A stretch of 32,000 bases of DNA, from assembly GCA_027460535.1 (NCBI GenBank), contig JAPZAR010000031.1, positions 91,072 to 123,071 of the forward strand, given 5' to 3'. The stretch comes from Candidatus Methanoperedens sp. GTDB lineage: Archaea; Halobacteriota; Methanosarcinia; Methanosarcinales; Methanoperedenaceae. The notes under the pieces were generated by a model. The model was not told the origin of the DNA. It worked only from the letters and a program-made list of their open reading frames with translations, and did no database searches. This document shows, piece by piece, positions 3,630 through 32,000 of the stretch. Every line of letters begins with the position of its first letter. The first letter of the stretch is position 1. A program made the translations under genes and the position numbers.

Positions 3630-5286
<1,657 letters not shown>

Positions 5287-5350: not shown

Positions 5351-5382
5351 CTTATCATAGATAATATCTTTATACTGAATAT

Positions 5383-6261
<879 letters not shown>

Positions 6262-6265
6262 GAAC

Positions 6266-6583: not shown

Positions 6584-6591
6584 GTGAGATA

Positions 6592-6969: not shown

Positions 6970-6981
6970 ATAGTAACGAAC

Positions 6982-7049
6982 CGCAGATAAACGCAGATGA
7001 ACGCAGATTTACTGCTTCGGATATCTGCGTTTATTCTGGTTCATCTGCG
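6982..7049. repeat. Phased-decamer hairpin element in the nifI2-nifD spacer
   Basis: Left arm is CGCAGATAAA-CGCAGATGAA-CGCAGAT (6982-7008). Right arm is ATCTGCGTTT-ATTCTGGTTC-ATCTGCG (7023-7049). Hand pairing gives a 7-bp outer and roughly 12-bp inner stem with a 14-nt loop. Its two ends recur at 16197 and 16336. Confidence 0.75.
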
Positions 7050-7099
7050 ATTAAAATTGTTCAATAGGAATAATAACGCGATAAAAAGGAGAAATAAAC

Positions 7100-16352: not shown

Positions 16353-16856
16353 AGTCTCGTTCTTCATAGCATTTTTACTACGCCGAATATTTATAACTCT
16401 GTAATTATTAAACTCCAGGCGCGCCGTTCCCGGAGCAGCAATATTCCATTAGACCCGAACTCCCCAGGCCCACGTTGATGGGATGGGCTTTTTTCTTGCG
16501 GAGGGGAAGACGGAATCATTTCTGGCTGGGGGCGCGAGGAGAGGTATATGATCAGTTCGCTTGTTGTTCTGACGCGTGAGATTATGCTGGCTCTTAAAGT
16601 CGTAAATGTCGTGGAATGCAGGGATGAAACCTGTGATTTCGTCGGATATAGCAGGGAACCAAAAACAGAACCAAAAATATCTTGAAGACTGATATAATGT
16701 TGAGAAGAATTCACCGTTGAAACGTGGCATCGAAATGAAAAATATATTGCATAATTAGAATTGATTTCTTGAATCCAGAATTGGATTTCTGAGAACATCG
16801 GTAGACTCGTCCTAGGTTGACGCCGAACGCTAAGAGCATCCAGAGACGGCTGTGAA

Positions 16857-19800
16857 CTATGCTTCGCCTCGAACAAAGTAATCTGCCAATAACTCAGCCT
16901 GCTTTAACACTGTATCAATAGCTTTTTGCTGCATATCCGGCGGATACCCGTATTTGTTTAATGTTCTTTTTACCAGTACCATTAGCTTTGCCCTTGCACT
17001 TTCCCGAATTGTCCAATCTATTGTCGCATTAGCCTTTACCTTTTCTGCCACTTCAATTGCAATAATTCTCAATTTGTCATCACCTAAGACTTCAACCGCT
17101 GAACCATTTTCAGCAAGTGCATCATAGAAAGCCAACTCTTCTTTTGATAAACCTAAATGAGCTTCTCTTTCATCATTCTCCTTTATTTTCTTGGCAACTT
17201 CATCAACTAAAAACTGTATAATTTCTGCTGTTGTCAGCAATCCATTATTGTACTTCTTGATTGCAGTTTCAAGCATTTCAAGCAAGGCCTTGCTTTTTAC
17301 AAGGTTGGTTTTTGAACGGGTTCGGATTTCATCATTGAGGATTTTCTTTAACAATTCAAGAGCCAGGTTCTGATGCTTCATACCTTTTATCTCCTGCAGA
17401 AATTCCTGTGAGAGAATGGATATCTCAGGCTTTTTTATGCCTGCCGCATCAAAAATATCTATCACCTGATCTGAACTCAACGCTTCATCAACTATCTGTT
17501 TTATGGTAGTTTCAATATCCAGATCTGATCTGCCACCACCGTTGCCTATAAACTTTACAAGCCTTGCCTTTACAGCCTGAAAGAATGCAACTTCATCTGT
17601 TATTGCCAGCGCTTGTCCGTCTGGCACGGATAACGCAAACGCCTGAGAAAGCATTGTGACTTCCCGGATTAAACGGTTCTTGCCATTCTCAAGACCCATT
17701 ATATGTTCCTCTGCCTGTAAGATTATCGAGAGCTTTTCTTGTGGTGAAGCTGAAAAGAAACGCCTGTAATTAAAGCCCGTTCCAGGATATTTGCCATAAT
17801 AAGCCGTGGGTTCCGCGATAAGGATCGCCTCTTTTGATTTGCTTTCTTCAAAGAAAAGCTGGCGCACTATTTCCAACTTCTCCAGCATTGCAGCTACTGC
17901 CTTTTCCTGCCCTTCTGCAGGGTCGCCTTTTCCACCTGAATTAGAATAAAAAGACAATGCTTTTTTAAGGTCTGTTGCAATGCCAAGATAATCAACAACC
18001 AGACCGCCAGGTTTGTCTCTAAATACCCTGTTTACCCGCGCTATAGCCTGCATCAGACTGTGGTCTCTCATTGGCTTATCAACATAAAGCGTATGCAGAC
18101 AGGGCACATCAAAACCCGTGAGCCACATATCTATGACGATGACCAGTCTTAACGGGTCTTCCGGGTCTTTCATTCTATCGGATAAATCCCTACGCTGCGA
18201 TTTAGTGGTGTGATGCTTCTGCATGACTGGGCCGTCAGCACTGGATGCAGTCATGACAACTTTGATCGCACCTTTTGACAGGTCGTCATTATGCCACTGC
18301 GGTCTAAGCTTGGTGATCTCATTATAGAGGTCAACCGCAATCCTGCGGCTCATAGCCACGACCATTCCCTTGCCCTCAAATCTGGCTGTCCGCAGCTCAA
18401 AGTGTGTGACGATATCCCTTGCTAAATTCTTTATCCGTTCCGGATTCCCAACAATGGCTTCAAGTTTTGCCCACTTGGCTCTTACTCTTTGCTTGTCGGT
18501 TATTTCTTCGTCTTCTTCAAGTTCTTTATCGAACTCTGCGATCAAGCGCTTGCCTTCCTCATCCAGATTTACTTTGGCAAGACGGCTTTCATAATAGATC
18601 TTAACTGTTGCGCCATCAGCAACGGATTGTGAAATATCGTAGATGTCAACATACTGCCCGAAAACTGCCGGGGTGTTTACGTCTGTACTTTCAATGGGCG
18701 TGCCTGTAAAACCAATGTATGTAGCATTGGGAAGGGCATCTCTCATATACTTGGCAAAGCCGTAGGCTATGCGTTTGCCGATTACATCTTTGGTTTCTTT
18801 GTCTTTTACATCAACAAGCTTTGCTTCAAAGCCATACTGGGTTCTATGCGCTTCATCAGCAATAACTACAATATTTCTTCTGTCTGAGAGCCGGTCGAAT
18901 TCTGCCTTGCCTGCTTCGGGTAAAAACTTCTGGATGGTTGTAAACACAATACCGCCGGAGGCAACGTTCAGCAGTTGTTTCAAATGCTCCCTGTCTCTTG
19001 CCTGTACCGGTTCCTGCCTCAGCAACTGCTTTGAGGCTGCAAAGGTGTCAAATAGCTGGTCGTCAAGGTCGTTGCGGTCTGTGATAACTACAACGGTGGG
19101 ATTGTTCAGGCTTAAAACAAGCTTGGCTGAATAGAAAACCATCGAAATGGATTTGCCGCTACCCTGTGTGTGCCATACAACACCGCCTTTGCGGTTTCCA
19201 TTTGTAGAAGCTGCTTTGATTGTGTTTTCTACTGCTTTATTGACTGCATAGTATTGATGATAGGCTGCTAATTTCTTTTCAGTCTCAACCTGTGTAATGC
19301 CTGTTTTTGGATCTTTCTTCTTTGATTTCTCAAATATTATGAAATTGCAAACAAGGTCTAATAAGGTAGTGGGGTTCAGCATTCCTTTTATCAGGATCTC
19401 TAACTGTGGAATGAACCGCGATGCTTCTTTTTTGCCGTCTGCACTTTTCCATGTCATGTAGCGGCTGAATCCTGCAGAAACGCTTCCTGCCCTGCAATCC
19501 ATTCCATCTGAAATAATGCAGACCTCATTGAAAGCAAATAAGCCCGGAATGGTGGCTTTGTAGGTCTGGATTTGGTCAAAGGCTTTTTTTATGGTTGCAG
19601 TTTCATCTGCTGCATTCTTCAACTCAAAAAGCACGATTGGGATACCATTGATAAAGAGCAAGATGTCAGGTCGCTTGTTCTGGTTATTCTCAACGATCGT
19701 GTACTGATTGACAACTAAAAATTCGTTGTTTGAAGGATGAGCAAAATCAATCAACGCCACTTCAAAGCTTCTTTCGTAGCCGTCCTGCTGATATGGTATT

Positions 19801-20099
19801 TTTATTTTCTCAATTAAGAACTGGTGAAAGGTTTCATTGTTGTGCAACAGGTCTGGTGAATAAATACGCAGCACTTTTTGCACAGCCTGTTCCTGTGCAT
19901 CCGCAGGAATATCAGGGTTTAACTTTGCAACAGCTTTGCGCAGGCGCTGCGTTAAAATGATCTGATCAAAACCTTCTCTCTCGGCAAACTCGGCGCCGGG
20001 GGCGATGGAAAGACCGTGGACATGTTGCCAGCCTAATGTCTTAAGTATTTCGATGGTAAAGGTTTCGATTTGTGATTCAGTGATTTTATTCGTCGTCAT
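16857..20099 (-). CDS. hsdR: Type I restriction enzyme R subunit HsdR
   Basis: 1080 aa. The N-terminal nuclease motif is RPDILLFINGIPIVLFELK. Helicase motifs are HTQGSGKS and VIADEAHRTQ. A conserved C-terminal domain is present. 14-nt overlap with the upstream rhuM-like gene. Confidence 0.95.
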   Translation of the reverse strand: MTTNKITESQIETFTIEILKTLGWQHVHGLSIAPGAEFAEREGFDQIILTQRLRKAVAKLNPDIPADAQEQAVQKVLRIYSPDLLHNNETFHQFLIEKIKIPYQQDGYERSFEVALIDFAHPSNNEFLVVNQYTIVENNQNKRPDILLFINGIPIVLFELKNAADETATIKKAFDQIQTYKATIPGLFAFNEVCIISDGMDCRAGSVSAGFSRYMTWKSADGKKEASRFIPQLEILIKGMLNPTTLLDLVCNFIIFEKSKKKDPKTGITQVETEKKLAAYHQYYAVNKAVENTIKAASTNGNRKGGVVWHTQGSGKSISMVFYSAKLVLSLNNPTVVVITDRNDLDDQLFDTFAASKQLLRQEPVQARDREHLKQLLNVASGGIVFTTIQKFLPEAGKAEFDRLSDRRNIVVIADEAHRTQYGFEAKLVDVKDKETKDVIGKRIAYGFAKYMRDALPNATYIGFTGTPIESTDVNTPAVFGQYVDIYDISQSVADGATVKIYYESRLAKVNLDEEGKRLIAEFDKELEEDEEITDKQRVRAKWAKLEAIVGNPERIKNLARDIVTHFELRTARFEGKGMVVAMSRRIAVDLYNEITKLRPQWHNDDLSKGAIKVVMTASSADGPVMQKHHTTKSQRRDLSDRMKDPEDPLRLVIVIDMWLTGFDVPCLHTLYVDKPMRDHSLMQAIARVNRVFRDKPGGLVVDYLGIATDLKKALSFYSNSGGKGDPAEGQEKAVAAMLEKLEIVRQLFFEESKSKEAILIAEPTAYYGKYPGTGFNYRRFFSASPQEKLSIILQAEEHIMGLENGKNRLIREVTMLSQAFALSVPDGQALAITDEVAFFQAVKARLVKFIGNGGGRSDLDIETTIKQIVDEALSSDQVIDIFDAAGIKKPEISILSQEFLQEIKGMKHQNLALELLKKILNDEIRTRSKTNLVKSKALLEMLETAIKKYNNGLLTTAEIIQFLVDEVAKKIKENDEREAHLGLSKEELAFYDALAENGSAVEVLGDDKLRIIAIEVAEKVKANATIDWTIRESARAKLMVLVKRTLNKYGYPPDMQQKAIDTVLKQAELLADYFVRGEA

Positions 20100-21105
20100 C
20101 TTTTTTTCCTGTGATGCGCTTTATCTCTTTGTCAAAATCGGAGATGTAATTTTTATCCTGAATTTTCTTGAATCTTTCATATTCTTTATTGACCAGAGCC
20201 AGAGCAACTTCATGACTGATTTGCCCGGCATTGGTGAGTATTTCGTATTCACTGAATTTCAGGAAGGCGTTCAGTTTTTCAATCCAATCTTTCATGTACA
20301 TTGGCGAATTGCGAACCGCCTGTAATTCCGCAAAATCAAGATACATGGTAACTATGCGGTTCAAATGATCAAGCTCAGGTTTGTCTAGATAGTTTTTTGC
20401 TATGGTAACATCACCTGGCATGATTTTACCGCCAGGTGCTTTTCGCCATGATGTCAATCCCATATTTGGCTTGTCGCTGCTGGCTCGTGTGGCTATAATT
20501 TCCGCGGCGGTCTGCCCTGTAATGGCAAAGTGCAGTTTGTTCTGTACCATCGCAAAGAACTGTTTTGTGTCCTGTGCTTTTGGCGAATAGTCAATAGAAG
20601 TGGCGTAAATATCAGTAATTTTCTGATACAACATCCGCTCACTGGAACGGATATCCCGGATTTCTTCGAGTAAGTCGTCAAAATATCGTGCGCTGAAACG
20701 GGAACCATATTTAAATCTGTCGCTGTCAATCGCAAAACCTTTATGAATATATTGCTGAAGAATTGAAATTGCCCATTGCCGGAACTGTGTGCCACGTTCT
20801 GAGTTAACCCTGTACCCCACCGCGATAATTGCTTCAAGCGAATAAAACTTTGTCTGATATTCCTTGCCATCTTCGGCAGTATGTGCAAAATTTGCACATA
20901 CTGAATCTTCCTCTAACTCGTTCTCAGAAAAGATGTTCTTCAGGTGCTTGGTGACAACACTACGATCTACATCGAACAGTTCCGCAATCCGCTTCTGGGG
21001 AAGCCAGATGTTTTCATTAGCGTATAGCACTTCAATGTTGATTTTTCCATCAGGTGTTTGATAAACGGTAATTTGATTGTCGGGTAATTTTTTATTTTTG
21101 GCCAT
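20086..21105 (-). CDS. RhuM-family protein (commonly embedded in type I R-M loci)
   Basis: 339 aa. The N-terminal region ITVYQTPDGKINIEVLYANENIWLPQKRIAELFDVDRSVVTKHLKNIF...AIIAVGYRVNSERGTQFRQWA matches my recollection of the RhuM family. Confidence 0.75.
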   Translation of the reverse strand: MAKNKKLPDNQITVYQTPDGKINIEVLYANENIWLPQKRIAELFDVDRSVVTKHLKNIFSENELEEDSVCANFAHTAEDGKEYQTKFYSLEAIIAVGYRVNSERGTQFRQWAISILQQYIHKGFAIDSDRFKYGSRFSARYFDDLLEEIRDIRSSERMLYQKITDIYATSIDYSPKAQDTKQFFAMVQNKLHFAITGQTAAEIIATRASSDKPNMGLTSWRKAPGGKIMPGDVTIAKNYLDKPELDHLNRIVTMYLDFAELQAVRNSPMYMKDWIEKLNAFLKFSEYEILTNAGQISHEVALALVNKEYERFKKIQDKNYISDFDKEIKRITGKKDDDE

Positions 21106-21338: not shown

Positions 21339-22160
21339 TCATTGGTTTAGTTTAAGTACAGAGTTTGCCAGCCTTTTTTCATTGCCTATCGGTGTTGTGT
21401 AATATCTCTGCTCAATACCATACAATATCTTTTTAAGATGGTCGTCTGTGCTAACAAGAAATGTGTCATCTTCTACTGGAACATCTTCACAATACGACCG
21501 TATATATTGAAAAATCTGCTGTTTGTTATCTTCTGTGAATTGGTTTAATATATCGATTGCCATTGCTATTCGCTTTCTATTGGCTGTTTTCACATTGTTG
21601 CAAGTAAATGTTTCATCAAGAGAAATGAAGTCTTGCTCCAGAAAAGCATCAACTTCGGCTTGAGTGGCTTCTCTGTAGAGTTCCTCAATACCTCTGAATA
21701 TTGATTTGACTCTTGCTATATTTTTAAAGTAAAGACTGTCAGCGTTTATATCGTAAACAGCATCAACAAAACTATTGAGGATTATAATAGGCTTATCAAT
21801 TTCAAGCGTTGGTTCGCTTGAAATGCGAAACCACTTTTTATAAATTAATTGAGTTGAAGACATCTTCAGAAAAAGAAAAAAATTGCCTTGTTTGCTACAT
21901 AAATAATTGATTTTAGAATATTGTCTTACAGTTATTTGATTATAAACTGTACTATCAAAGGTGCTTCCTATAAAGTTATTCTCATAACCAAGACTTAAAA
22001 AGTTATCTAATTTAAACCATTCACCATCTTCCAACTTATATGCTGGCGAATATGCTTGACTATCTGATAAGTCAGGCAAATCAAATACGCCTCTTTGAAC
22101 TGACATGACCTTCAAAAACTCTGCATTTCGACCTTTTATTTCTGCTAGTAAATAATTCAT
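21339..22160 (-). CDS. Hypothetical soluble protein, possibly KwaB-like (DUF4868-like)
   Basis: 273 aa from MNYLLAEIKG, with GGAAAGGT RBS 7 nt upstream. No motif is securely recognised. Its size, its position directly after a multi-TM protein, and the central region LYFKNIARVKSIFRGIEELYREATQAEVDAFL resemble my recollection of KwaB. Markedly AT-rich. Confidence 0.45.
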   Translation of the reverse strand: MNYLLAEIKGRNAEFLKVMSVQRGVFDLPDLSDSQAYSPAYKLEDGEWFKLDNFLSLGYENNFIGSTFDSTVYNQITVRQYSKINYLCSKQGNFFLFLKMSSTQLIYKKWFRISSEPTLEIDKPIIILNSFVDAVYDINADSLYFKNIARVKSIFRGIEELYREATQAEVDAFLEQDFISLDETFTCNNVKTANRKRIAMAIDILNQFTEDNKQQIFQYIRSYCEDVPVEDDTFLVSTDDHLKKILYGIEQRYYTTPIGNEKRLANSVLKLNQ

Positions 22161-22164
22161 AATA

Positions 22165-22219
22165 TTACCTTTCCATATCCACAAATGTATATTTACCTTT
22201 CCATATCCATAAATGTATA
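22165..22219. repeat. 27-nt tandem duplication (period 28, 1 mismatch) at the junction of the membrane and soluble genes
   Basis: TTACCTTTCCATATCCACAAATGTATA (22165-22191) against TTACCTTTCCATATCCATAAATGTATA (22193-22219). The second copy encodes the last codons and stop of the membrane protein. The first copy supplies the RBS region of the next gene. Confidence 0.85.
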
Positions 22220-22735
22220 ATTATTGATGCGTTTTAGATTGTCAAATGCTGCGCTTTTAGGCTCTTTTATTTGCTTTCGTGTAATTAATAACACTTTGAT
22301 ATTCTTATTGTTCACGAGATAATAAAAGTTGAATCCAAACAGGAAAAATATCGGATTAAAATAAGAAATTCTGGAATAAAAAATAAAAATACAAATTATC
22401 CCGAAAACATAAAGAAATACCTCAATGTTTGGAATGCTTAACGCAACAAAAAAATAACCTAAATAACTTGGTAAGAATGCGTCATTGGCTGGTTCAATAA
22501 CCGAGATGGAGCCTGCATCTATCGTGTCTGTGCCTAAAAAGTTAATAAGCCGCATACTCAGCCATGTAAATATTAAAACTACTACAAAATATAAAATATA
22601 AGAAATTATATTTGGTAAGCTTGAAAGGTATGGATACAAAGAGTTTATGACAATCCCTTCTTTAATAAGAAATACAATCAACGAGAGTAATAATGAATTT
22701 AATGTCAAACAAAATTTAAAAATGTGTTCTATCAT
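22193..22735 (-). CDS. Small multi-TM membrane protein, possibly KwaA-like
   Basis: 180 aa with 4-5 hydrophobic helices by eye (LLLSLIVFLI, IISYILYFVVVLIFTWL, YLGYFFVALSI, VFLYVFGIICIFIFY, IFFLFGFNFYYL). It starts 9 nt after the hsdS stop. Very AT-rich. Confidence 0.45.
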   Translation of the reverse strand: MIEHIFKFCLTLNSLLLSLIVFLIKEGIVINSLYPYLSSLPNIISYILYFVVVLIFTWLSMRLINFLGTDTIDAGSISVIEPANDAFLPSYLGYFFVALSIPNIEVFLYVFGIICIFIFYSRISYFNPIFFLFGFNFYYLVNNKNIKVLLITRKQIKEPKSAAFDNLKRINNYTFMDMER

Positions 22736-22744
22736 TCATCCTCC

Positions 22745-23944
22745 TCACATTTCAACCCTCACTTCCCCGCTCATCAACTTCGGCAGCAGCGTATCGCGCA
22801 GGCGGGTGAGGGTGCGGATTTGGATTTGATTGCTTTTTATTTTTTCAAAAGTTGGATTAATTATTTCATGCATTTCTTTTAATTTATTTTTTGGCGGAAC
22901 TAATACCGTTGCACTTGATAAATGATGTCTTTGGATATGTCCCATTGTGGTTGCTTTATCTTCTGCTATTCCTTGAAATTCAGGTAAGTGATATTTCACC
23001 CAGAAATAATAAAACCATTGTGGAAATTCAGTTGATGAAACTTTAAATAAATGTTGATTCAAAACTCCTTTACCTTCTGACCAAATCACAATATCTAAAC
23101 TACCTGACCATGAGAAAAGCATATCACCATTATGAACCAAATATTTTTCAGGAACATCATTAGTTGCAATATCCGAAGCATCTGTAATTCCTGTTCTCAA
23201 TTCTTTTATCTTGATAACAGGCAAACCAACTTCACCGACTTTTGCTGGAAATTTCTGACAAGCTAAACCATTTAAGAACTCTGCAATTTCATCCATACCT
23301 TTTTCTTCCCACCCCTCCTCCGCCTCTTCCACAAACCACTGCCTGAACAGCGTCTCTGCCAGTGCCTCCAGGGTTTTGTTCTGGCGGTGCAGCAGGTCTA
23401 TTTTGTTGTCGAGGCTGGAAAGCACAGAGGCGATGGATTGTTGTTCTAGGAGGGGGGGGACAGGGAGAAAAATTTCCTTTAAAGCAGAAAGATTTAATGT
23501 TGGCTGAACTGTATCGTTTGTGTGACTATAGATTTGATATTTTACTTGTTCAAAAGAGAAGCAGTATTTTATAAATGATTTATCATAAGCCTCAGAAATA
23601 TTGGAAACACTCACTGCTCTTGCAACATTCCAACCTTTGTAGACATTGGGGACAATTGCACATTCTCCAACACTTCCAACAACCGTTAATAAAAGTTCCC
23701 CACCCTTAAGTCTTGTTCGGGAATATTTTTTTTCAATCTCTTTATCTACCATCATCACATCAACTGAAAAAATTCTTCCGTCTTTTATGTTATTAACTCT
23801 AAGAACAGGGATACTATTGGTAACTTGATGGAAACCGGGTTGAACAATGCCATAAGACAGACCATTCGGGATAATTATTCTCTCAAAAGGCAAGCAGTCC
23901 CAATGTTTAGGAATTAATCCAACTTTACTGTCTTTGTATTCCAT
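22745..23944 (-). CDS. hsdS: Type I R-M specificity subunit HsdS
   Basis: 399 aa. Two variable target-recognition regions are separated by conserved helices (LPPLLEQQSIASVLSSLDNKIDLLHRQNKTLEALAETLF and RTLTRLRDTLLPKLMSGEVRV). Confidence 0.9.
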   Translation of the reverse strand: MEYKDSKVGLIPKHWDCLPFERIIIPNGLSYGIVQPGFHQVTNSIPVLRVNNIKDGRIFSVDVMMVDKEIEKKYSRTRLKGGELLLTVVGSVGECAIVPNVYKGWNVARAVSVSNISEAYDKSFIKYCFSFEQVKYQIYSHTNDTVQPTLNLSALKEIFLPVPPLLEQQSIASVLSSLDNKIDLLHRQNKTLEALAETLFRQWFVEEAEEGWEEKGMDEIAEFLNGLACQKFPAKVGEVGLPVIKIKELRTGITDASDIATNDVPEKYLVHNGDMLFSWSGSLDIVIWSEGKGVLNQHLFKVSSTEFPQWFYYFWVKYHLPEFQGIAEDKATTMGHIQRHHLSSATVLVPPKNKLKEMHEIINPTFEKIKSNQIQIRTLTRLRDTLLPKLMSGEVRVEM

Positions 23945-23945: not shown

Positions 23946-25553
23946 TCATCCCACAGTTGTGTTATTGATATTGATTTTAGAAAGATTGTTTTGAATACGA
24001 TTGTTTAATTCGGTTTCTTCGATAATTTGTTTTTCCAACTCGGTTTTCAGAGAAATAAATCGTTCAACAAAATTGAAATCATCCTCATCATCTGGCAAGC
24101 CAATATACCTGCCGGGTGTCAGTACATAGTTCAAAGTCTTTACGTCATCCAGTGCCGCTGATTTACAGAATCCCTGCACATCCTTATATTCCCCTTCACC
24201 TGTGCGCCAGTTGTGATATGTGCGCCCGATCAATGCAATATCTTCATCAGATAACTCCCTGTTTTTGCGGTTAATCAAATGCCCCATATTACGGGTATCA
24301 ATAAACAATATTTTGCCCTTGCGTTGCTGTTTGTTACGGCTCAAAAACCACAAGCATGCGGGAATCTGGGTATTCAGGAATAGCTTGGTTGGAAGATTCA
24401 CAATGCAATCTATTAAATCATTTTCCACCATAGCCTTGCGTATATCGCCTTCGTTGTTGGTTTTGGTGGTCAGTGAACCCTTAGCCAAAACAAAGCCAGC
24501 CTGCCCCGTCGGCGCCAGATGATAGAGGAAATGCTGTATCCATGCATAGTTGGCGTTGGCTGGCGGCGGCGGCAGTTTTTGTCCTAATACGCTCCAGCGC
24601 GCATCATCACGGAGCATCTCGCCGCTCCAGTCACTGTCGTTGAATGGGGGATTTGCAATGATGTAATCGGCCTTCAGATCCTTATGCATATCGTTGAGAA
24701 AAGAGCCTTCATTGTTCCACTTTACATTGCTGCTGTCAATGCCGCGGATGGCAAGGTTCATTTTGGCCAGGCGCCAGGTGGTCTGGTTGCTCTCCTGCCC
24801 GTATATTGAGATGCGGTCTTTGGGATCAATGCTTAATTTCCTGCCATTATTTTTTTTATAATGATCCTGATGCGCCTCAATGAACTTTTCACTCTGCACA
24901 AACATACCGCCAGAACCGCAGCAGGGGTCAAAAACGCGCCCTTCATAAGGCTCAAGCATCTCAACCAGTAGCTTTACAACGCTACCCGGAGTGTAGAACT
25001 GTCCTCCCTTTTTGCCTTCTGCCAATGCAAATTCACCCAAGAAATATTCAAATACCTTGCCCAAGAGGTCTTTACCTTTTGCTTCCTTAGTACCCAATTC
25101 CGCGCTGCCTATAAGGTCAATCAAACCGCCAAGGCTCTGTTTGTCTAATTTCTCCTGTGCAAATACTCTGGGCAACACCCCTCTGAGGGAAGGGTTGTCC
25201 TTTTCGATTGCATCCATGGCTTCATCTACATCTTTGCCTATGGTGGGAAGCTTTGCTCGACCCTGCAACCAATTCCAGCGCGAAGAAGGGGGCACGTAAA
25301 AAACCTTTTCAGCAGTGTATTCATTCTTATCTTCGGGGTCAGCACCTTCATAGGCGCCTTTGCCTTCTTTCAGCTTTTGATGAAGTTCGAGAAAGGCGTC
25401 AGAAATATATTTCAGGAAGATCAAGCCCAAAACAATATGCTTGTATTCGGCTGCATCCATGTTCTTGCGCAACTTGTCGGCTGCCTTCCAGAGTTTCTTT
25501 TCTAAGGGTTCATCATTGTGGTTATTTTTTTCTTTATCGAACCGGGCCATCAA
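23946..25553 (-). CDS. hsdM: Type I R-M N6-adenine DNA methyltransferase HsdM
   Basis: 535 aa. The SAM motif is FDPCCGSGGMF and the catalytic motif is IANPPFN. The N-terminal HsdM domain reads LWKAADKLRKNMDAAEYKHIVLGLIFLKYISD. Confidence 0.95.
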   Translation of the reverse strand: MMARFDKEKNNHNDEPLEKKLWKAADKLRKNMDAAEYKHIVLGLIFLKYISDAFLELHQKLKEGKGAYEGADPEDKNEYTAEKVFYVPPSSRWNWLQGRAKLPTIGKDVDEAMDAIEKDNPSLRGVLPRVFAQEKLDKQSLGGLIDLIGSAELGTKEAKGKDLLGKVFEYFLGEFALAEGKKGGQFYTPGSVVKLLVEMLEPYEGRVFDPCCGSGGMFVQSEKFIEAHQDHYKKNNGRKLSIDPKDRISIYGQESNQTTWRLAKMNLAIRGIDSSNVKWNNEGSFLNDMHKDLKADYIIANPPFNDSDWSGEMLRDDARWSVLGQKLPPPPANANYAWIQHFLYHLAPTGQAGFVLAKGSLTTKTNNEGDIRKAMVENDLIDCIVNLPTKLFLNTQIPACLWFLSRNKQQRKGKILFIDTRNMGHLINRKNRELSDEDIALIGRTYHNWRTGEGEYKDVQGFCKSAALDDVKTLNYVLTPGRYIGLPDDEDDFNFVERFISLKTELEKQIIEETELNNRIQNNLSKININNTTVG

Positions 25554-25663: not shown

Positions 25664-26248
25664 TCATAATAGATGACTTTTTGTAACTTCAATAATTCGA
25701 TCTAACATAATAGCTGAATTTCTAAATTTCATATCCTTTTCCTGTGGATTTCCAATTTTCTCTCTAAAACCTTGTGTTATAGAATCAAGGACAATATCCA
25801 AGTCTTCTCTTAGTTTTATCTCTTTCTCATTTAAGACTTCATTTAAGTCAGGTTGATTTTCTGTATGATATTTCTTCATATAATTGGATATTTTAATAAT
25901 TTGATTTTCAATTTCTTCTTGTGATTTCTTTTTGAAGATGTTCTTATCATTTTTAATAAAGGATATCCAATTCTTACTATTTCGTTTACTATTACAAGTA
26001 GGGCAGGACGGAACTACATTTCCTATAACATGAAGTCCACCAATTGTTTCTGGCCACAAATGGTCAGGCTGTAAATCTTGATCATCCTTGGAAATACCAC
26101 AATAAACACAATTAGGCCCTAATTCCTCAAGTGATCTCTCAAATGCATCCTCTTGACTATGCTTCTGCAATAAAACTGATAAAATAGCCTTTCTAAATGC
26201 ACCACGTCCATTTCCTAGAATTTGTGCAATTGGTTTCGGTTTTGGCAT
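25664..26248 (-). CDS. HNH endonuclease-domain protein
   Basis: 194 aa with CVYCG...DHLWP...GNVVPSCPTCNSKRNSK (CxxC...DH...N...CxxCN). AAGGAG RBS and a TATA-like AAATATATAAC lie upstream. AT-rich. Confidence 0.85.
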   Translation of the reverse strand: MPKPKPIAQILGNGRGAFRKAILSVLLQKHSQEDAFERSLEELGPNCVYCGISKDDQDLQPDHLWPETIGGLHVIGNVVPSCPTCNSKRNSKNWISFIKNDKNIFKKKSQEEIENQIIKISNYMKKYHTENQPDLNEVLNEKEIKLREDLDIVLDSITQGFREKIGNPQEKDMKFRNSAIMLDRIIEVTKSHLL

Positions 26249-26383
26249 TGTTTATCTCCTTTATGTTATATATTTAGTGTCACTATTACGCACAACGGTA
26301 TGAGTGTTTGATTAGGACGGAACCTTTGGATTTTAACCTGTTAAATGAAATTGCTCTTTGATTATACAAATCAAACAACAGCA

Positions 26384-27409
26384 TCAATCTTCACCTGATT
26401 CATATGTTTCTAAAAGTAAAACCGAAACTCCCGGGCCGCCTTCATCATTCCATTGCCCTTCGTGTCTATTCGGTGGAAGGTCATTATTTGAAAAAGAAAA
26501 ATCAACCAACTCCTGCAGGAAAGATCGTCTTGATGGTCGTATGCTAGGAGGCGTTGCATAGAAACACCCATCTATTTCAGATGGCGAAGCTCCTGTAGTT
26601 CTAGGTTGTTTTCCGTATTTAGAATTAGCTCTTCGAAATGCTTTTTCAGCGGAGCTTTTTAAAATGTCCCAAACGACTCTTGACCATCCATTTTCCTTAA
26701 TAGCTGTTTTGCTATCATCAAATGGATCACCGGAAAGGAGTTCCAATGAATGAACAATTTCCAATCCGAGGTCACAATGATCCATTATCGGATTGCTTGG
26801 AATGCAAGATCCGATAGGATAGGTGCATGGACTACCCAATATACCGGATTCCGGTCTTTCAGGAGGTCGGTCATCAATAAGTAGATATTGAGCGCCTCTA
26901 CGTGGAGCTGAGGGCTTAACGTGTCTTGTTTGACCATTTAATGAGCCAGAAGTGACATAGGTAAATGCAGGCCACGTTGAATAAAGTTTTAATTGGTCTT
27001 TGTCATTTCCACGAAGTTTATATGGCTGAACCGCAGACTTTTTTGCCTGATATAAAATTGCATTTCTAATTACATTTCCGTCAATATCAGAATGGACATG
27101 ACACCATAATAAATCGCCGAGTTCGCATGAGTTGCCTTTCATACCGCTAAAGTTGACTTTAGGTGTCTGATGACAATAAATTCCAGTAACAACAATCCGG
27201 ATTCCGAGTGAATCAAAAACATTGCGCCATTCATTTTCAATAATTTTTGTACCATTTAAAACCAAAGATGCAACGATATCTGGTTCTTCAGGCTCATTAC
27301 CTCTGATTCTACAATTATTCCATGCTTCAATCATGCTTACTGATATTGCATATCGAGCAGAAGTAACTAGATAAGGCTTAACCTTCATAACAGTAAGCAA
27401 AAATGACAT
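26384..27409 (-). CDS. Uncharacterised 341-aa protein with a PD-(D/E)xK-like motif
   Basis: Long ORF with GAAGGA RBS. I recognise no family. CELGDLLWCHVH...(about 20 aa)...ILYQAKK resembles an E..D...QxK restriction-endonuclease-fold core. No P-loop seen. The C-terminal 90 or so residues are P/S/R/G-rich. Confidence 0.6.
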   Translation of the reverse strand: MSFLLTVMKVKPYLVTSARYAISVSMIEAWNNCRIRGNEPEEPDIVASLVLNGTKIIENEWRNVFDSLGIRIVVTGIYCHQTPKVNFSGMKGNSCELGDLLWCHVHSDIDGNVIRNAILYQAKKSAVQPYKLRGNDKDQLKLYSTWPAFTYVTSGSLNGQTRHVKPSAPRRGAQYLLIDDRPPERPESGILGSPCTYPIGSCIPSNPIMDHCDLGLEIVHSLELLSGDPFDDSKTAIKENGWSRVVWDILKSSAEKAFRRANSKYGKQPRTTGASPSEIDGCFYATPPSIRPSRRSFLQELVDFSFSNNDLPPNRHEGQWNDEGGPGVSVLLLETYESGED

Positions 27410-27870
27410 GTTCCTTCATCTCTATTATTATATGCTCTTGCGTTCGCTTTTTGCACATTACTCGTTCATATCCGAACTCGATTCGAATATAGGTTCTTTT
27501 GCCTGAATACCAATTCCTTACTCATCAAATACCACCTCGCATTATATTTGTCTAAAGGATTTTTTATTCTGCTTAATTCTATATTACTCACATATGTATA
27601 AGAGTTCCTCATAATAGTGAATTTAAACCATAATACTAATGGTGGCCTTAGTCATGCAAATGCATGGCTTATCAGTGCACAGTTAATTATTTCAGGTGCA
27701 GGAACAGTAAGACAAAAGCCTTTATAACAAAGATCGCACACATGGTCGAAAAGGAAGCCATCAACCCATCCCAGGTCCTTCATCACCATACATTCCTATC
27801 TCGCAGTGGATAGCTTTCAACCGAGTTCTTGACCAGCTTGCCGTACTTCTTCTACCTTCTCATCTCCATG

Positions 27871-28076
27871 GTGAACAGGGTCTTCAATCAAAATAATCCC
27901 ATAGCCCTTCATATCCAGCAGCCCCATCACCCTATTCCTCTCGCCAGCCATCTTGAATCTATAGCAGGACTGTCGCCCAACCGCAGGCGGATTCGGGCCG
28001 AACGGGCGGCGGGGGTTTGATGTGGTTGCCCGGGGTGCATATCGGCACCAAGGGATTAATATTTTTTAAGTGATAC
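27871..28076 (+). repeat. Composite repeat unit 1 (body B 27871-27987, tail T1, promoter-like P 28031-28076)
   Basis: B runs GTGAACAGGGTCTTCAATC...CCCCATCACCCTATTCCTCTCGCCAGCCATCTTGAATCTATAGCAGGACTGTCGCCCAACCGCAGG. P reads CATATCGGCACCaagggaTTAATATTTTTTAAGTGATA and abuts the MNT gene region. Confidence 0.85.
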
Positions 28077-28136
28077 ATGTCTTCGACCCTTCCTGCACCC
28101 CAATTCTTAAATATTATTGTTCACATATATGAACAT

Positions 28137-28676
28137 ATGTTCAAAAAAATGAACGTATTCTCAAAGCCCTCCATACAAATAATACAATATCTTGGCAGGA
28201 GATATCGAGATGGCTACTATGTCCGCGAGATATCAAGAAATCTTGGTATCGGTCTGGGATCAGCGAGCCAGAGCCTGAGAACGCTCGAAGAAGCCGGACT
28301 CGTTTTAAAAGAGCACAAGGGCAGGCTGGTAATATACAGGGCGAACATGCAAAATTTCGTGCTCAGGGAGTTCAAGATACTTCTCACCCTTCTGGAAATA
28401 TATCCGTTCATCTTGCCCTTAAAAAAAATCTCTTCAAGGATCATCCTATTTGGAAGCTGTTCCGCAGGGGAGGACACAATAGACAGCGATATCGATATTT
28501 TCATTGAATCCGATAATAAAAGAGATGTTTCCATGCTTCATGACCGTTATTGGGAAGAGATCCCCAGGAAGATATCTCCCATTATTCTGGACGCCTCTGA
28601 ATTCAGGAACCTGGAGGCTAAAGACAGACCACTTTTCGAAAGGATTAACATTGGAAAAGTAATCCATGAAACATAA
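28137..28676 (+). CDS. Winged-helix + minimal nucleotidyltransferase (MNT) fusion, antitoxin-type partner of HEPN
   Basis: The wHTH is IQIIQYLGRRYRDGYYVREISRNLGIGLGSASQSLRTLEEAGLV. The NTase motif is ILFGSCSAGEDTIDSDIDIF. The start is set at M21 of the track ORF because the 28077 ATG lies too close to the TATA-like box (28057-28068). 28149 is also possible. Confidence 0.8.
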   Translation: MFKKMNVFSKPSIQIIQYLGRRYRDGYYVREISRNLGIGLGSASQSLRTLEEAGLVLKEHKGRLVIYRANMQNFVLREFKILLTLLEIYPFILPLKKISSRIILFGSCSAGEDTIDSDIDIFIESDNKRDVSMLHDRYWEEIPRKISPIILDASEFRNLEAKDRPLFERINIGKVIHET

Positions 28677-29101
28677 TGAGATATCAGTTTGAACAGTGCA
28701 TTGACAAAGGTAAGATAGTAAAAATCGAAATAGCCTCTGATCTAATATCTAAAGAGATCGATGAGGCAAAAAACGATCTTAATTCATGCGAGAGATCCAT
28801 ACAGGAAAGTAACTTCAAATGGGCGATAATCCAGGCATATTATTCCATGTTTCACTCATTTAGAGCCCTTATTTTCAGCAAAGGCTATAGAGAAAAAAGC
28901 CACACTTGCATAAAATACGCAATAGAATCTCTTTTTGTGGACACAGGCGCTCTGGATAACCAGCTCTTACAGGACTTTAGCTATGCCATGAAGGTCCGGG
29001 AAGGAGCGGATTATGGAAGTGTATATGGTAAAGACTCTGCGCTGGAATTGCAGATCTCAGCAGGTAGAATATACGAAGTAGCTAAAAGGTTAATTTCATA
29101 G
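28676..29101 (+). CDS. HEPN-domain protein (toxin-type partner of MNT)
   Basis: 141 aa with AIIQAYYSMFHSFRALIFSKGYREKSH...KVREGADYG, a HEPN helical pattern. TAATG overlap with the MNT gene. Its TAG stop lies inside the resumed repeat (CATAGCCC). Confidence 0.85.
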   Translation: MRYQFEQCIDKGKIVKIEIASDLISKEIDEAKNDLNSCERSIQESNFKWAIIQAYYSMFHSFRALIFSKGYREKSHTCIKYAIESLFVDTGALDNQLLQDFSYAMKVREGADYGSVYGKDSALELQISAGRIYEVAKRLIS

Positions 29102-29245
29102 CCCTTCATATCCAGTAGCCCCATCACCCCATCCCTCTCGCCAGCCATCTTGAATCTATAGCAGGACTGCCGCCCAATTGCACGCTCGAAGCCTGACCCG
29201 CGAGAGGTTGTGGAGGCGGTGGTGAGTGGGGTGCTTGAGGAAGAA
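29097..29245 (+). repeat. 5'-truncated repeat body (B 3' part) + tail variant T3 + degenerate P
   Basis: CATAGCCCTTCATATCCAGTAGCCCCATCACCCCATCCCTCTCGCCAGCCATCTTGAATCTATAGCAGGACTGCCGCCCAA is followed by GCTCGAAGCCTGAC...CGAGAGGTTGTGGAGGCGGTGG. The second part recurs at 29754-29803. Confidence 0.8.
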
Positions 29246-29321
29246 TCGCATAATGAGAATATCAAATGAAAATAAAGAAAACATATATACGATATTAGTA
29301 ATCTATTAAAATTGCATTAAT

Positions 29322-29540
29322 ATGGTAAAAGCGATAGTGAATATAAACGAAAGAGCCAACAGGGTATTAAATATAGTAAAAGCAAAACATGGTTTGAAAA
29401 CCAAATCTGAAGCTATTAATAAAGTGGTAAGTGAGTATGGAAAATCACTTCTTGAACCTGAACTGGATATTCTCAAAACTTGCAAAGAGAGATCCGAAAA
29501 AGATGCGGATGATCGAGAAAAAGATAAAACAGATTTGTGA
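29322..29540 (+). CDS. Archaeal antitoxin-like protein (DUF2683-like by recollection)
   Basis: 72 aa. MVKAIVNINERANRVLNIVKAKHGLKTKSEAINKVVSEYGKSLLEPEL fits a family usually found upstream of archaeal RelE-type toxins. Confidence 0.65.
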   Translation: MVKAIVNINERANRVLNIVKAKHGLKTKSEAINKVVSEYGKSLLEPELDILKTCKERSEKDADDREKDKTDL

Positions 29541-29694
29541 AAAACCTCTGCATTTCAAACCCTTAAGAGCGCCGATGCAGCATTTGCGAAGAGTCCATAT
29601 TGATAAAAGCTTTGTCTTAACCTATTCAGTCAATGAGAAAAATAAAGTTGTGGTAATAGAAGATTACGATCACCATGATAAAATCTATTTATAG
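29437..29694 (+). CDS. RelE/ParE-superfamily toxin
   Basis: 85 aa from MENHFLNLNWIFSKLAKRDPKK...HFKPLRAPMQHLRRVHIDKSFVLTYSVNEKNKVVVIEDYDHHDKIY, a typical archaeal RelE pattern. It overlaps the antitoxin ORF out of frame by 104 nt. Confidence 0.8.
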   Translation: MENHFLNLNWIFSKLAKRDPKKMRMIEKKIKQICEKPLHFKPLRAPMQHLRRVHIDKSFVLTYSVNEKNKVVVIEDYDHHDKIYL

Positions 29695-29749
29695 TAATTT
29701 TTATTTTACAGCACCGCATCGCCGCCAGACCAGCTCGTGCCCCTCTGCG

Positions 29750-29878
29750 ATAAGCTCGAAGCCGGACTCCTGCGCTCGCAGGCGGACAGCGAGAGGTTGA
29801 TGGAGGCGGTTGGAGGATGCTGGCGGGGCTTCGGGAACATATCGGCGCAGGGAGTTTAATATTTTTGAAGTGATATAA
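29750..29878 (+). repeat. Tail variant T3 + promoter-like P module
   Basis: GCTCGAAGCCGGAC...CGAGAGGTTGATGGAGGCGGTTGG is followed by GCTTCGGGAACATATCGGCGCagggagTTTAATATTTTTGAAGTGATATA. Confidence 0.8.
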
Positions 29879-29917
29879 GATGTGATAGAACACGGAGCGC
29901 ACTGATAACACAGAGTG

Positions 29918-29968
29918 GCATGGATTAAAATTATCCGTGCGTATCCGTTAAATCCGTGTCATCCGCGT
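29918..29968. repeat. ATCCG phased-decamer hairpin element
   Basis: GCATGGAT-taaaatt-ATCCGTGC forms an 8-bp stem including one G-T pair. It is followed by tandem ~10-nt units: ATCCGTGCGT, ATCCGTTAA, ATCCGTGTC, ATCCGCG. Confidence 0.6.
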
Positions 29969-30136
29969 TCCATTCTTCGAACCGCCTCCCCCCACAAAAA
30001 GAAGCAATAACCGTTTCCCCGCCCCCCATCGCCGCCGCCTGCCCCGCGCCATCGCCAGCACTATCCCTCATCGGATAGCTCTCAACCGGAGTTCGCTGTT
30101 GATTCTGAGTAAACGCGCTGTCCCATAGGCCGTGAG

Positions 30137-30189
30137 GCTGCTTCGGGAACATATCGGCGCCGCGAGATTAATATTTAAAGAGAGATAAA
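30137..30189 (+). repeat. Promoter-like P module (variant)
   Basis: GCTGCTTCGGGAACATATCGGCGCCgcgagaTTAATATTTAAAGAGAGATAAA. Confidence 0.75.
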
Positions 30190-30217
30190 TGTGCGGTGCG
30201 CAAAGGACGCGAAGCAT

Positions 30218-30387
30218 GCCCCATCACCTTATTCCTTTCGCCAGCCATCTTGAATCCATAGCAGTGCAGGACTGCCGCCCAACCGCAGGTGGATCCGAGC
30301 CGAATCTCGGTTTTGATGCGAGGTGGTTACCTGGGGCCGTATCGGCGCCGGAATTGAATATTTTCTAAGTGATATATATTTCTCCAA
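30218..30387 (+). repeat. 5'-truncated body B + tail T2 + P module
   Basis: CCCCATCACCTTATTCCTTTCGCCAGCC...GCCCAACCGCAGG is followed by TGGATCCGAGCCGAATCTCGGTTTTGATGCGAGGTGGTTACC and then GGGGCCGTATCGGCGCCggaatTGAATATTTTCTAAGTGATATATA. Confidence 0.85.
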
Positions 30388-30504
30388 GTGAACAGGGTCT
30401 TCATTCAAACTAGGGTCATAGCCCTGCATTTCCGGCAACCCCATCACCCTATTCCTCTTGCCCACCATCTTGAATCCATAGTAGGACTGTCGCCCAACCG
30501 CAGG
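30388..30504 (+). repeat. Full repeat body B (117 bp)
   Basis: GTGAACAGGGTCTTCATTCAAACTAGGGTCATAGCCC...GTCGCCCAACCGCAGG. Identical to 31884-32000. Confidence 0.9.
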
Positions 30505-30639
30505 GGTCTTCAATCAAAATTAGACCATACCCCTTCATATCCACCAGCCTATCACCCCATCCCTCTCACCGGCCATCTTGAATCTATAGCAGGACTGTCG
30601 CCCAACCGCAGGCGGATTCGGGCCGAACGGGCGGCGGGG
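30505..30639 (+). repeat. Repeat body B fused head-to-tail to the previous one, + tail T1
   Basis: The junction ...CCGCAGG|GGTCTTCAATC lacks tail, P and the GTGAACA start, and falls at the shared CAGG. The unit ends ...GCCCAACCGCAGGCGGATTCGGGCCGAACGGGCGGCGGGG. Confidence 0.85.
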
Positions 30640-30787
30640 TACGCATACATCAGATGGTTGATCTTGCTGAGGGCGAAGGCGGATTATCAGGATGGAGAAT
30701 GAGGGGAAGTTCTATCGGGATATTCTTATCGCAAAGATGAATTATGCGAAGACGAAGAGGCTCATGGAGCAAGATAATGTTTATATT

Positions 30788-31141
30788 TTACCTTATGATC
30801 CCCAACTGAAAACACAATCTATCGATTAGTTCTTCCTGTAAGCTCAAATCCTCGATTTTACCTAAATCCCTGATAAGGCGCCTTTTGTCAAGAGTCCTTA
30901 TTTGATAACATAGTGCAATGGACTCTTTCTCAAGCCCTCCGGTAGAGGCGGGGATCAAAACCTCATTCGGATAAATCCTCCTTTCTTGTTTTCTTGATGT
31001 TATCGGAATAACGTTCACGACCGGTAGTATCTGATTTATCTCTTCCTCGCTTATTACAATGACGGGACGTATCTTCCCCTGCTCAGAACCAATAACGGGA
31101 TCTAGATTTACCAAAAATATATGCCATTTATACTGCATCAT
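30788..31141 (-). CDS. mazF: MazF/PemK-family toxin endoribonuclease
   Basis: 117 aa with IFLVNLDPVIGSEQGKIRPVIVIS...VIPITSRKQERRIYPNEVLI...ALCYQIRTLDKRRL, the classic PemK/MazF pattern. Confidence 0.92.
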   Translation of the reverse strand: MMQYKWHIFLVNLDPVIGSEQGKIRPVIVISEEEINQILPVVNVIPITSRKQERRIYPNEVLIPASTGGLEKESIALCYQIRTLDKRRLIRDLGKIEDLSLQEELIDRLCFQLGIIR

Positions 31142-31376
31142 CTAATCCTTCTAGATCAATCGATTTGAAATCTTCAGATATTTCTTCCATATCTTCGAGG
31201 AACAGTTTGTCTTTTGCAGCGTTCTTCAATTCACGGATTCTTTCTCTGAAGCTATCCTGCTTTTTCTTCATAATCAAAATTACCTCAACTGTCTCATTTT
31301 CAGGGAATTCCCTAGGGACTTTGATCTTTATTTCATGGTTCTTTGGTATCTTGATAATCTGTTTGACTGCTTCCAT
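31128..31376 (-). CDS. Putative cognate antitoxin (MazE/AbrB-like by position)
   Basis: 82 aa with an acidic C-terminus. 14-nt overlap with mazF. I do not securely recognise the fold. Confidence 0.6.
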   Translation of the reverse strand: MEAVKQIIKIPKNHEIKIKVPREFPENETVEVILIMKKKQDSFRERIRELKNAAKDKLFLEDMEEISEDFKSIDLEGLDDAV

Positions 31377-31592
31377 GTCTTAGTCCTCTTGATTGGCATT
31401 TCAGGTGCTTTGTGGTATCTTAAACCGATGTCATAGTATTTGATACGCATTTTATACACTTAAACTTGGTTTTATAGGATATATAATCTGATGAGATACC
31501 GTGCTGAATCTACCTTGACACGAGTCTGGGACTTTTGCAAGGGAAGACTTTGGAGGAACTCTTTCTTTTCAGGATGTAATTTTGTAATGCGC

Positions 31593-31665
31593 GGTTTTTG
31601 ATGTTGTCCGGGGGCATATTGGCGCCGGAATTGAATATTTTGGAAGTTATATATGTTTCTCCACA
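31593..31665 (+). repeat. Partial tail + P module
   Basis: GGTTTTTGATGTTGTCCGGGGGCATATTGGCGCCggaatTGAATATTTTGGAAGTTATATATGTTTCTCCACA. Confidence 0.8.
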
Positions 31666-31883
31666 GTGAACAGGGTCTTCAATCAAAATAAGACATAGCC
31701 CATCACATCCAATACCCCATCACCCTATTCCTCTCGCCAGCCATCTTGAATCCATAGCAGTGCAGGACTGCCGCCCAACCGCAGGTGGATCCGAGCCGAA
31801 TCTCGGTTTTGATGCGAGGTGGTTACCTAGGGCCGTATCGGCGCCGGAATTGAATATTTTGTAAGTGATATATATTTCTCCAA
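31666..31883 (+). repeat. Complete 218-bp unit (B + T2 + P)
   Basis: GTGAACAGGGTCTTCAATCAAAATAAGACATAGCCC...CCGCAGG + TGGATCCGAGCCGAATCTCGG... + GTATCGGCGCCggaatTGAATATTTTGTAAGTGATATATATTTCTCCAA. The next unit follows directly. Confidence 0.9.
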
Positions 31884-32000
31884 GTGAACAGGGTCTTCAT
31901 TCAAACTAGGGTCATAGCCCTGCATTTCCGGCAACCCCATCACCCTATTCCTCTTGCCCACCATCTTGAATCCATAGTAGGACTGTCGCCCAACCGCAGG
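31884..32000 (+). repeat. Full repeat body B, ending exactly at the window edge (the array continues beyond)
   Basis: Identical to 30388-30504. Confidence 0.9.

Follow-up and report, generated by a model that had tools for sequence, protein, structure and literature searches.

A large unannotated protein family of defence islands and its apparent independence from an adjacent HNH gene in Candidatus Methanoperedens

Septu combines the ATPase PtuA with the HNH protein PtuB, PDC-M01 has an HNH protein as its component B, and Lamassu comprises the effector LmuA, the SMC ATPase LmuB and an optional LmuC. Nucleases of the RecB/Cas4 type within the PD-(D/E)xK superfamily share a set of motifs (an acidic residue on a helix, G-D, h-h-X-h-K and QxxxY) on elements in the order α-β-β-β-α-β, while PrrC sits between hsdS and hsdR of type I restriction-modification (R-M) operons. 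Genes embedded in such operons are often defence genes (PMC11411939; bioRxiv 10.1101/2024.01.29.577857): TgvAB occupies the same hsdS-hsdR slot (PMC11411939), and Payne et al. showed that a gene's location inside an operon of type I R-M, BREX or DISARM is predictive of a role in defence, added 145 candidates to PADLOC on these grounds and noted that PrrC is found almost only within type I R-M (bioRxiv 10.1101/2024.01.29.577857). Here we analyse a stretch of 32,000 nucleotides (nt) of contig JAPZAR010000031.1 from Candidatus Methanoperedens sp. (the window, to whose positions all coordinates refer unless a locus is named), in which a gene for a 341-amino-acid (aa) protein, called gene A below (26384–27409, minus strand), and a gene for a 194-aa HNH protein of the ββα-Me type (25664–26248, minus strand) precede a type I R-M operon. 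A first-pass annotation had proposed that the two constitute a defence module. Our comparative analysis suggests that they are independent cassettes and that gene A is a mobile single-gene defence effector, possibly a divergent phosphodiesterase of the RecB-type PD-(D/E)xK kind, a reading to which we assign a probability of about 0.6.

Loci encoding A were gathered from genomes, metagenomes and exact-protein look-ups; the 137 loci reduced to 114 distinct ones at 95% identity, and 83 had at least 800 nt downstream of A. A hidden Markov model of the HNH family identified a member in only two of the 114, namely the window and L053, and none of the 43 genome loci contains an HNH homologue within ±8 kb of A. 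In L053 the A and HNH proteins are 75% and 80% identical to those of the window, the start of hsdM comes next, and the nucleotide similarity begins at the A start codon; L053 is thus a syntenic relative, so that it and the window count as a single evolutionary event. The proposed two-gene module is therefore not borne out by co-occurrence. Reciprocally, four of the five distinct contexts of the HNH gene have no A nearby, and these include relatives as close as 84% identity (L152) as well as more remote ones (L054, 71%; L056, 54%; L059, 46%). The nearest relatives of A have other companions: P0002 (88% identity), P0004 (83%) and P0005 (84%) are followed by an open reading frame (ORF) of 66 aa and an SMC ATPase of about 808 aa, P0003 (84%) by a helicase that matches the PADLOC candidate PDC-S28 with an E-value of 8e-285, while P0006 (81%) has a gene for an OLD/GajA-type nuclease ahead of it, and further relatives adjoin genes for TIR-like, HD, methylase, ClpP, GAF or GatB proteins.

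The boundaries of the conserved DNA also differ between the two genes. The DNA shared with loci that have A only extends from 27634 to 26293 and comprises the ORF together with 225 nt on its 5' side and 91 nt on its 3' side, whereas L152, which has the HNH gene and neither A nor hsdM, matches the window only from 26262 to 25621 (minus strand, 88.8% nucleotide identity), which delimits the HNH cassette. These separate boundaries imply that most of the 135-nt spacer between the genes is A's own 3' flank. The 5' flank (27410–27634, minus strand) travels with A at 83% nucleotide identity to L048, L050 and L051, in which the genes beyond it differ from those of the window; it likely contains the gene's own promoter and leader, with an RBS-like GAAGGA (RBS, ribosome-binding site) 5 nt ahead of the ATG. 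The 3' flank (26293–26383, minus strand; delimited by blastn boundaries and alignment) contains in the relatives a 10-nt inverted repeat, AGTGCTTGAG...CTCAAGCACT, the 5' arm of which is deleted in the window. Only L048 and L062 (z-scores −1.2 and −2.2) give a convincing fold of the corresponding hairpin, which is degenerate in the window, and the flank is absent from L053, where the two genes are 32 nt apart. Two pairs of terminal inverted repeats at cassette boundaries, I5 and I7, were considered and rejected, because such pairs occur at about chance frequency in AT-rich DNA; a further ground for rejecting I5 is that most of its upstream arm falls beyond the DNA that L152 shares with the window. 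Judged by contexts and boundaries, A and the HNH gene appear to be two single-gene cassettes that have come to adjoin in one Methanoperedens lineage, and it is highly probable that they do not form an obligate module.

Gene A is a real gene, with 117 close homologues and more than 1,300 clusters of remote ones. Its product is 100% identical to a protein from a metagenome-assembled genome (MAG) of Candidatus Methanoperedens, for which NCBI places the start at M8 (334 aa); homologues conserve residues 1–7, so that M1 (341 aa; window 27389–27409) is the better start. All 117 close homologues carry the public name "hypothetical protein". When 1.84 billion representative proteins were searched by profile, 1,323 clusters (at 50% identity) were found with E ≤ 1e-3 and 1,006 with E ≤ 1e-10, hence a family of at least 1,323 such clusters, whose members are nearly all stand-alone proteins of 310–350 aa; longer members, with N- or C-terminal extensions, revealed no recognisable fused domain. 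Bacterial hosts come from many phyla, a small clade occurs in MAGs of archaea and candidate phyla, and the family is absent from 50,697 phage records, 72,556 plasmid records and 2.9 million viral contigs (IMG/VR). Scans of the single protein against Pfam, NCBIfam, PADLOC and PHROGs gave no match, as did comparison with the PDB by sequence and by two profiles, and no paper in the literature library that was searched cites the family's accessions. The family is thus very large, mostly bacterial, unnamed and absent from current annotation libraries, in agreement with the first-pass annotation, which could name no family for the protein; its coordinates, lengths and orientation of the two genes, the gap between them and the lack of a P-loop in A were likewise correct.

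An AlphaFold2 model of A built on an alignment of 47 sequences reached a predicted local distance difference test score (pLDDT) of 87 and a predicted template modelling score of 0.89, and the core modelled separately (residues 36–240) a pLDDT of 88. Across 217 sequences, residues conserved at 86–100% are E42-P-D44, C79-H80-Q81-x-P83, E96-x-G98-D99, Q121-A-K123, Q139-x-x-L-Y143, W146-P147, R162, G172-A-Q-Y175, W247-D248, R260, R270 and E334. Among them E42/D44, D99, Q121-x-K123 and Q139-xxx-Y143 are conserved at 96–100% and lie on the secondary-structure elements expected for a PD-(D/E)xK protein: in the model a helix (42–66) opens with E42/D44, D99 directly precedes a strand (100–107), Q121-A-K123 lies within a strand (113–124) that pairs with the former via a 5-residue turn, and Q139/Y143 are located in the next helix (134–145), which is followed by another strand (149–152). 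The pairing of the two strands would place D99 opposite Q121 and K123 on the same side, and both the order of the motifs and the predicted elements that carry them fit the RecB/Cas4-type layout. The candidate catalytic residues suggested by the model are E42, D44, H80, E96, D99, Q121, K123, Q139 and Y143, and E96 could possibly substitute for the missing second acidic residue. The nuclease-like core that had been suspected from the ELGD (residues 96–99) and YQAKK (residues 120–124) strings was in part upheld, as the D...QxK arrangement is conserved and placed in a β-hairpin, but the structure and profile searches predicted no nuclease fold. The "P/S/R/G-rich tail" fared similarly: residues 263–328 are indeed rich in these amino acids (42%), weakly conserved and modelled with low confidence, but the protein ends in a conserved strand (residues 326–341, GVSxLLLET) that is part of the modelled fold. 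Whether A is a PD-(D/E)xK-type nuclease is, on the basis of the model, nearly an even question, with the odds slightly against.

The analysis of genomic neighbourhood associates A with defence. Of the assignments that Pfam and PADLOC gave to 114 genes flanking A in the genome loci, defence functions are the most common, including AAA_21/AriA-like ATPases, SMC_N, Eco57I/N6_Mtase, ResIII, GmrSD_N, Mrr_cat, type I and type IIG R-M, HD-CE, BrxC, DrmMI, PglX and MADS components, and no assigned family accounts for more than 5 of these 114 neighbours. All-against-all clustering of neighbours revealed no fixed partner of A, nothing recurring in more than 8 of the 114 distinct loci. The single most frequent neighbourhood is type I R-M, which has A in or beside its operon in 9 of the 114 loci. 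Four of these (L032, L122, L126 and L137) exhibit the order hsdM-hsdS-A-hsdR, where A is flanked by gaps of 10–71 nt in three of them and by short overlaps in the case of L126; variants of this layout occur in L028, L103 and L108, and L128 (A-hsdM-hsdS-hsdR) has the order of the window without the HNH gene. Except for the pairs L032/L137 and window/L053, the A copies in these loci are only 31–41% identical to one another, from which it follows that the association recurs across deep branches of the family. Gene A thus lies inside type I R-M operons of multiple genomes and is neither a mobility nor a housekeeping gene, the location that arguments from embedding look for, which makes it a reasonable candidate for single-gene immunity. 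The earlier argument from guilt by association within one defence island was strengthened by the 114 loci. The A family appears, from these comparisons, to move horizontally between bacterial and archaeal chromosomal defence islands and to have been repeatedly embedded in type I R-M, mostly in the hsdS-hsdR slot.

Two further loci deserve mention. L001 (positions 1–9167) contains an A homologue (38% identical) in a region resembling a conjugative element, with TrbC, VirB3, VirB4, TraG and RadC, where it lies between an Mrr_cat gene and a gene for a 654-aa DUF2779 protein; DUF2779 is also found near the HNH homologue in L059. In L025, from a Cyclobacteriaceae MAG, the gene for a 510-aa ABC-type ATPase (L025:6463–7995) overlaps the start of an A homologue (L025:7992–8951) by 4 nt, which suggests apparent translational coupling and would be a second, independent ATPase-A pairing.

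From the invariant residues and the neighbourhoods we infer the nuclease fold, the catalysis and the defence function of A; with some reserve, we favour the view that it is a defence gene. In the mechanism that we propose, A alone would act as the effector, most likely as a metal-dependent phosphodiesterase whose PD-(D/E)xK centre, of RecB type, would be highly divergent. E42/D44 would belong to the helix that precedes the sheet, E96-x-G-D99 would begin one strand of the hairpin, Q121-x-K123 would lie on the strand paired with it, and Q139-xxx-Y143 would be part of the next helix. Such an enzyme could cut the nucleic acid of the invader, or that of the host in an abortive response, and its activity may complement the neighbouring R-M system. 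A more far-reaching proposition, which we regard as doubtful and offer tentatively, is that A founds a new, widespread and autonomous single-gene immune family, with a fold that is either new or a PD-(D/E)xK fold too divergent to be recognised, which was recruited preferentially into type I R-M as a second line of defence and crossed from Bacteria to Archaea.

Several observations weigh against the reading of A as a lone PD-(D/E)xK defence effector. Foldseek searches with the full model against the PDB and BFVD, and with the core against the PDB, found no significant neighbour: the best E-values were 0.2 in BFVD and 1.2 and 0.1 in the PDB. The top matches in BFVD, namely one protein labelled "PD-(D/E)XK nuclease superfamily" (0.2) and UL24 proteins of five herpesvirus entries, and MspI in the search with the core (0.64), are weakly in favour of the nuclease reading but not significant. 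Alignment of the A family with seven N-terminal nuclease domains of HsdR by hhalign gave only a 14-residue match with a probability of 0.5%, and 150 family members scanned one by one against Pfam at E ≤ 5 returned noise only. The acidic position of the (D/E)xK motif is occupied by Q, and the protein is acidic to neutral (isoelectric point 6.2). Housekeeping genes, such as those for GatB and ClpP, lie next to A in some loci. In L053 the genes are tightly packed (gaps of 32 nt between A and HNH and of 15 nt between HNH and hsdM), which makes co-transcription and a lineage-specific functional link possible. Finally, A moves as a block with the 66-aa ORF and the SMC gene in the window's own clade, and so may not always act alone.

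The last two points lead to explanations in which A has a partner. If A cooperated with the HNH protein in a two-gene system of defence, be it only in this lineage of Methanoperedens, with A for example as the sensor or first nuclease and the HNH protein as the effector, this would account for their adjacency on the same strand, for their low GC content at third codon positions (GC3; 26% and 21.5%, against 51% in hsdM) and for the conservation of the compact A-HNH-hsdM arrangement in L053. As L053 is syntenic and not an independent co-occurrence, the 112 other distinct A loci lack such an HNH gene, each gene is found without the other at high identity (A at 81–88%, HNH at 84%), the cassette boundaries are separate with the window's A keeping its own 3' flank between the genes, A has no ATPase domain, and PADLOC holds no A-type partner for an HNH protein resembling PDC-M01B or PtuB, we consider such cooperation very improbable. 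The linkage of A to the SMC gene appears to be better evidence of this kind. In L048 (6992–10753), L050 (6957–10714), L062 (734–4495) and L107 (274–2571) one block of A, the 66-aa ORF and the SMC gene of about 808 aa is shared at 86–94% nucleotide identity while both flanks differ; the SMC ATPase matches the PADLOC model of LmuB (1.6e-28) and, weakly, the Rad50 zinc hook, and the A copies of the block are the closest relatives of the window's A (83–88% identity). A could accordingly be the effector of a Lamassu-like system of three genes, formed with the 66-aa protein and the LmuB-like SMC protein, and the window's copy an orphaned effector. This has a slim chance of being correct, as the block is limited to one narrow clade, an ABC or SMC ATPase lies within two genes of A in only 9 of the 114 loci, four of which are the block itself, A matches no LmuA model, and the window ceases to resemble the block loci 91 nt beyond A, short of the 66-aa gene.

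A partnership with the R-M system itself, in which A would be a functional accessory of type I R-M, can be envisaged in two versions: a latent effector that is held or monitored by HsdMSR and freed when a phage inhibits restriction, as for PrrC, or a partner that acts on DNA escaping type I restriction, as for TgvAB. The frequency of this neighbourhood, and the presence of A lineages of such low mutual identity in the very slot that houses PrrC and TgvAB, are what such an accessory would lead one to expect. Yet in over 90% of the loci no type I R-M gene lies within three genes of A, so that A cannot depend on HsdMSR generally, and the hsdS-hsdR gap is a known landing site of unrelated defence genes, in the window Kiwa and rhuM; we regard an accessory role of this sort as unlikely. 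It is also rather unlikely that A is not an immunity nuclease at all and is an enzyme or binding protein of a new fold with another role, e.g. in mobile-element maintenance or stress, that gathers in variable regions. The failure of every method to assign a fold or family, the acidic to neutral protein, the housekeeping neighbours of some loci (GatB, ClpP and an MFS transporter) and the one locus beside RadC and genes of a type IV secretion system would agree with such a role, whereas the strong and taxonomically wide presence of defence genes in the flanks, the repeated embedding in R-M operons, the absence from plasmid, phage and viral collections and the invariant D, QxK and QxxxY, placed where a PD-(D/E)xK centre would be, argue against it.

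The HNH gene is also real, with 13 full-length homologues, a small family given that 5.8 billion sequences were searched. Its product exhibits the motifs C47xxC50, D62-H63, N77 and C82xxC85-N86, which would supply the catalytic His, a structural Asn, a metal-binding Asn/His and two CxxC pairs of zinc ligands, and passes the curated Pfam thresholds of HNH_5 (PF14279; 1e-9, 38.6 bits against a cut-off of 27.5) and HNH (PF01844; 3.9e-8, 33.7 bits against 21.4), which together place it, as far as motifs and profiles can, in the HNH endonuclease superfamily. It matches many PHROG HNH families, while matches to PDC-M01B (9.1e-6) and PtuB (1.2e-4) in PADLOC are weak and cover only the generic catalytic core, the match to the HNH region of IscB/Cas9 is far below the cut-off and again limited to the core, and viral contigs give core-level matches only. 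In addition, the C-terminal half of the protein is helical and its N-terminal part contains the motif GRGxFRKA. This motif, D62, N77, N86 and the zinc ligands are invariant in the family, and F or L takes the place of the presumed general base H63 in 5 of 12 aligned members, so that part of the family may not be active nucleases. The sequence upstream of the start, ACTAAATATATAACATAAAGGAGATAAACAATG, holds TATA-like and RBS-like (GGAG) strings, and the G+C content of the gene is 31.6%, against 45.2% in hsdM; these points and the motif itself had been recognised in the first pass, as had the fact that the pair does not fit Septu, there being no ATPase. The contexts of the homologues resemble defence islands, e.g. 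with a helicase-MZB-PLD protein and Vsr in L056, or DUF2779, RmuC, WYL and giant helicases in L059, and share no recurring neighbour. On these comparisons the HNH gene is probably a rare, ordinary, mobile and stand-alone gene of nuclease type without a fixed partner.

The island of the window has the order A-HNH-hsdM-hsdS-KwaA-KwaB-rhuM-hsdR followed by a 161-aa ORF, all on the minus strand. The HNH stop is separated by 110 nt from hsdM (23946–25553; Pfam N6_Mtase, 9e-107, and HsdM_N), whose likely start is the ATG at 25550, aligned with the start in L053, while the ORF listing begins at a TTG at 25553. Then come hsdS (22745–23944; Methylase_S, 1.4e-27), KwaA (22193–22735; PADLOC, 9e-12) and KwaB (21339–22184; PADLOC, 6.7e-15), both without a Pfam match, a rhuM-family gene (20086–21105; Virulence_RhuM, 4e-107) and hsdR (16857–20099; HSDR_N, SWI2_SNF2 and T1RH-like_C). 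The 161-aa ORF (16391–16876), which shares 20 nt with the 3' end of hsdR and has no match in Pfam or PADLOC, may be a further gene that was embedded in the island or appended to it. The Kiwa pair and the rhuM-family gene are situated between hsdS and hsdR, inside the type I R-M operon, a clear archaeal case of nested defence systems. GC3 falls from about 43–51% in hsdR and hsdM to 21–30% in A, HNH and the Kiwa genes. Pfam and PADLOC thereby confirm the context of type I R-M, a Kiwa-like pair, rhuM and toxin-antitoxin (TA) cassettes that had been described for the two genes. The first 16 kb or so of the window consist of ordinary chromosomal genes, among them those for an S-layer protein, an ammonium transporter (Amt), nifH, two nitrogenase component-1-type (nifD/K-like) proteins, a CBS/PNPOx protein, TauE and an AsnC/TRASH regulator; with such housekeeping and nitrogen-related genes alongside, the island is chromosomal, with its start near 16.4 kb. 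Scans of the window with Rfam and for tRNA genes gave no hits.

On the opposite side of the island lie MNT/HEPN (28077–29101), ParE-like (29322–29694) and PemK plus antitoxin (30788–31376) cassettes. All three are located among a direct repeat of 125–218 nt, of which at least 8 full or partial copies, 80–98% identical and on one strand, alternate with these small TA cassettes at 27863–32000; spurious ORFs translate the repeat. It has no copies in the rest of the window or in any of the fetched loci. An integron attC site or a miniature inverted-repeat transposable element was rejected as an explanation of these repeats upstream of A, which fold worse than shuffled sequences (z +1.3 to +1.6).

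The failure of the two-gene idea saves effort on a module that probably does not exist, and gene A remains as a concrete and inexpensive target, given its more than 1,300 clusters in many phyla, the lack of a name in any library and a confident model without a recognised neighbour. The unassigned fold raises its potential value. If A alone were found to restrict phages or plasmids, it would be a common immune gene that PADLOC and Pfam-based tools have missed, in archaea including Methanoperedens as well, and another case for asking why accessory defences nest in type I R-M operons.

Compared with the systems introduced above, Septu and PDC-M01 resemble the window in the weak core matches of its HNH protein to PtuB and PDC-M01B, and differ in that no PtuA-like ABC-type ATPase lies beside the HNH gene, as A has no P-loop and matches neither PtuA nor PDC-M01A. 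Lamassu is approached by the closest relatives of A, which are followed by a small ORF and a co-moving LmuB-like SMC gene, whereas the window has no SMC gene and hence no LmuB beside an LmuA-type effector, A does not match LmuA, and the linkage is found in one clade only. Nucleases of the RecB/Cas4 type, including the N-terminal domain of HsdR, appear to resemble A in the order and placement of the conserved residues, with h-h-Q-x-K as the form that the third motif takes in A; A differs in that searches by sequence, by profile and with Foldseek match it to none of them, in the Q that replaces D/E in motif III and the longer spacing (22 residues) from D to QxK, in additional invariants (C79-H80-Q81-x-P83, W146-P147, G172-A-Q-Y175, W247-D248 and the C-terminal strand) and in the architecture of a 341-aa protein resembling a single domain. 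From PrrC, RloC, TgvAB and the PDC candidates A is distinguished by the lack of an ATPase or anticodon-nuclease domain, by matching no PADLOC model, including those of PrrC, the HECs and the 145 PDCs, and by the fact that most of its copies are not embedded; what it has in common with them is the position X in hsdM-hsdS-X-hsdR, which it occupies in several divergent lineages.

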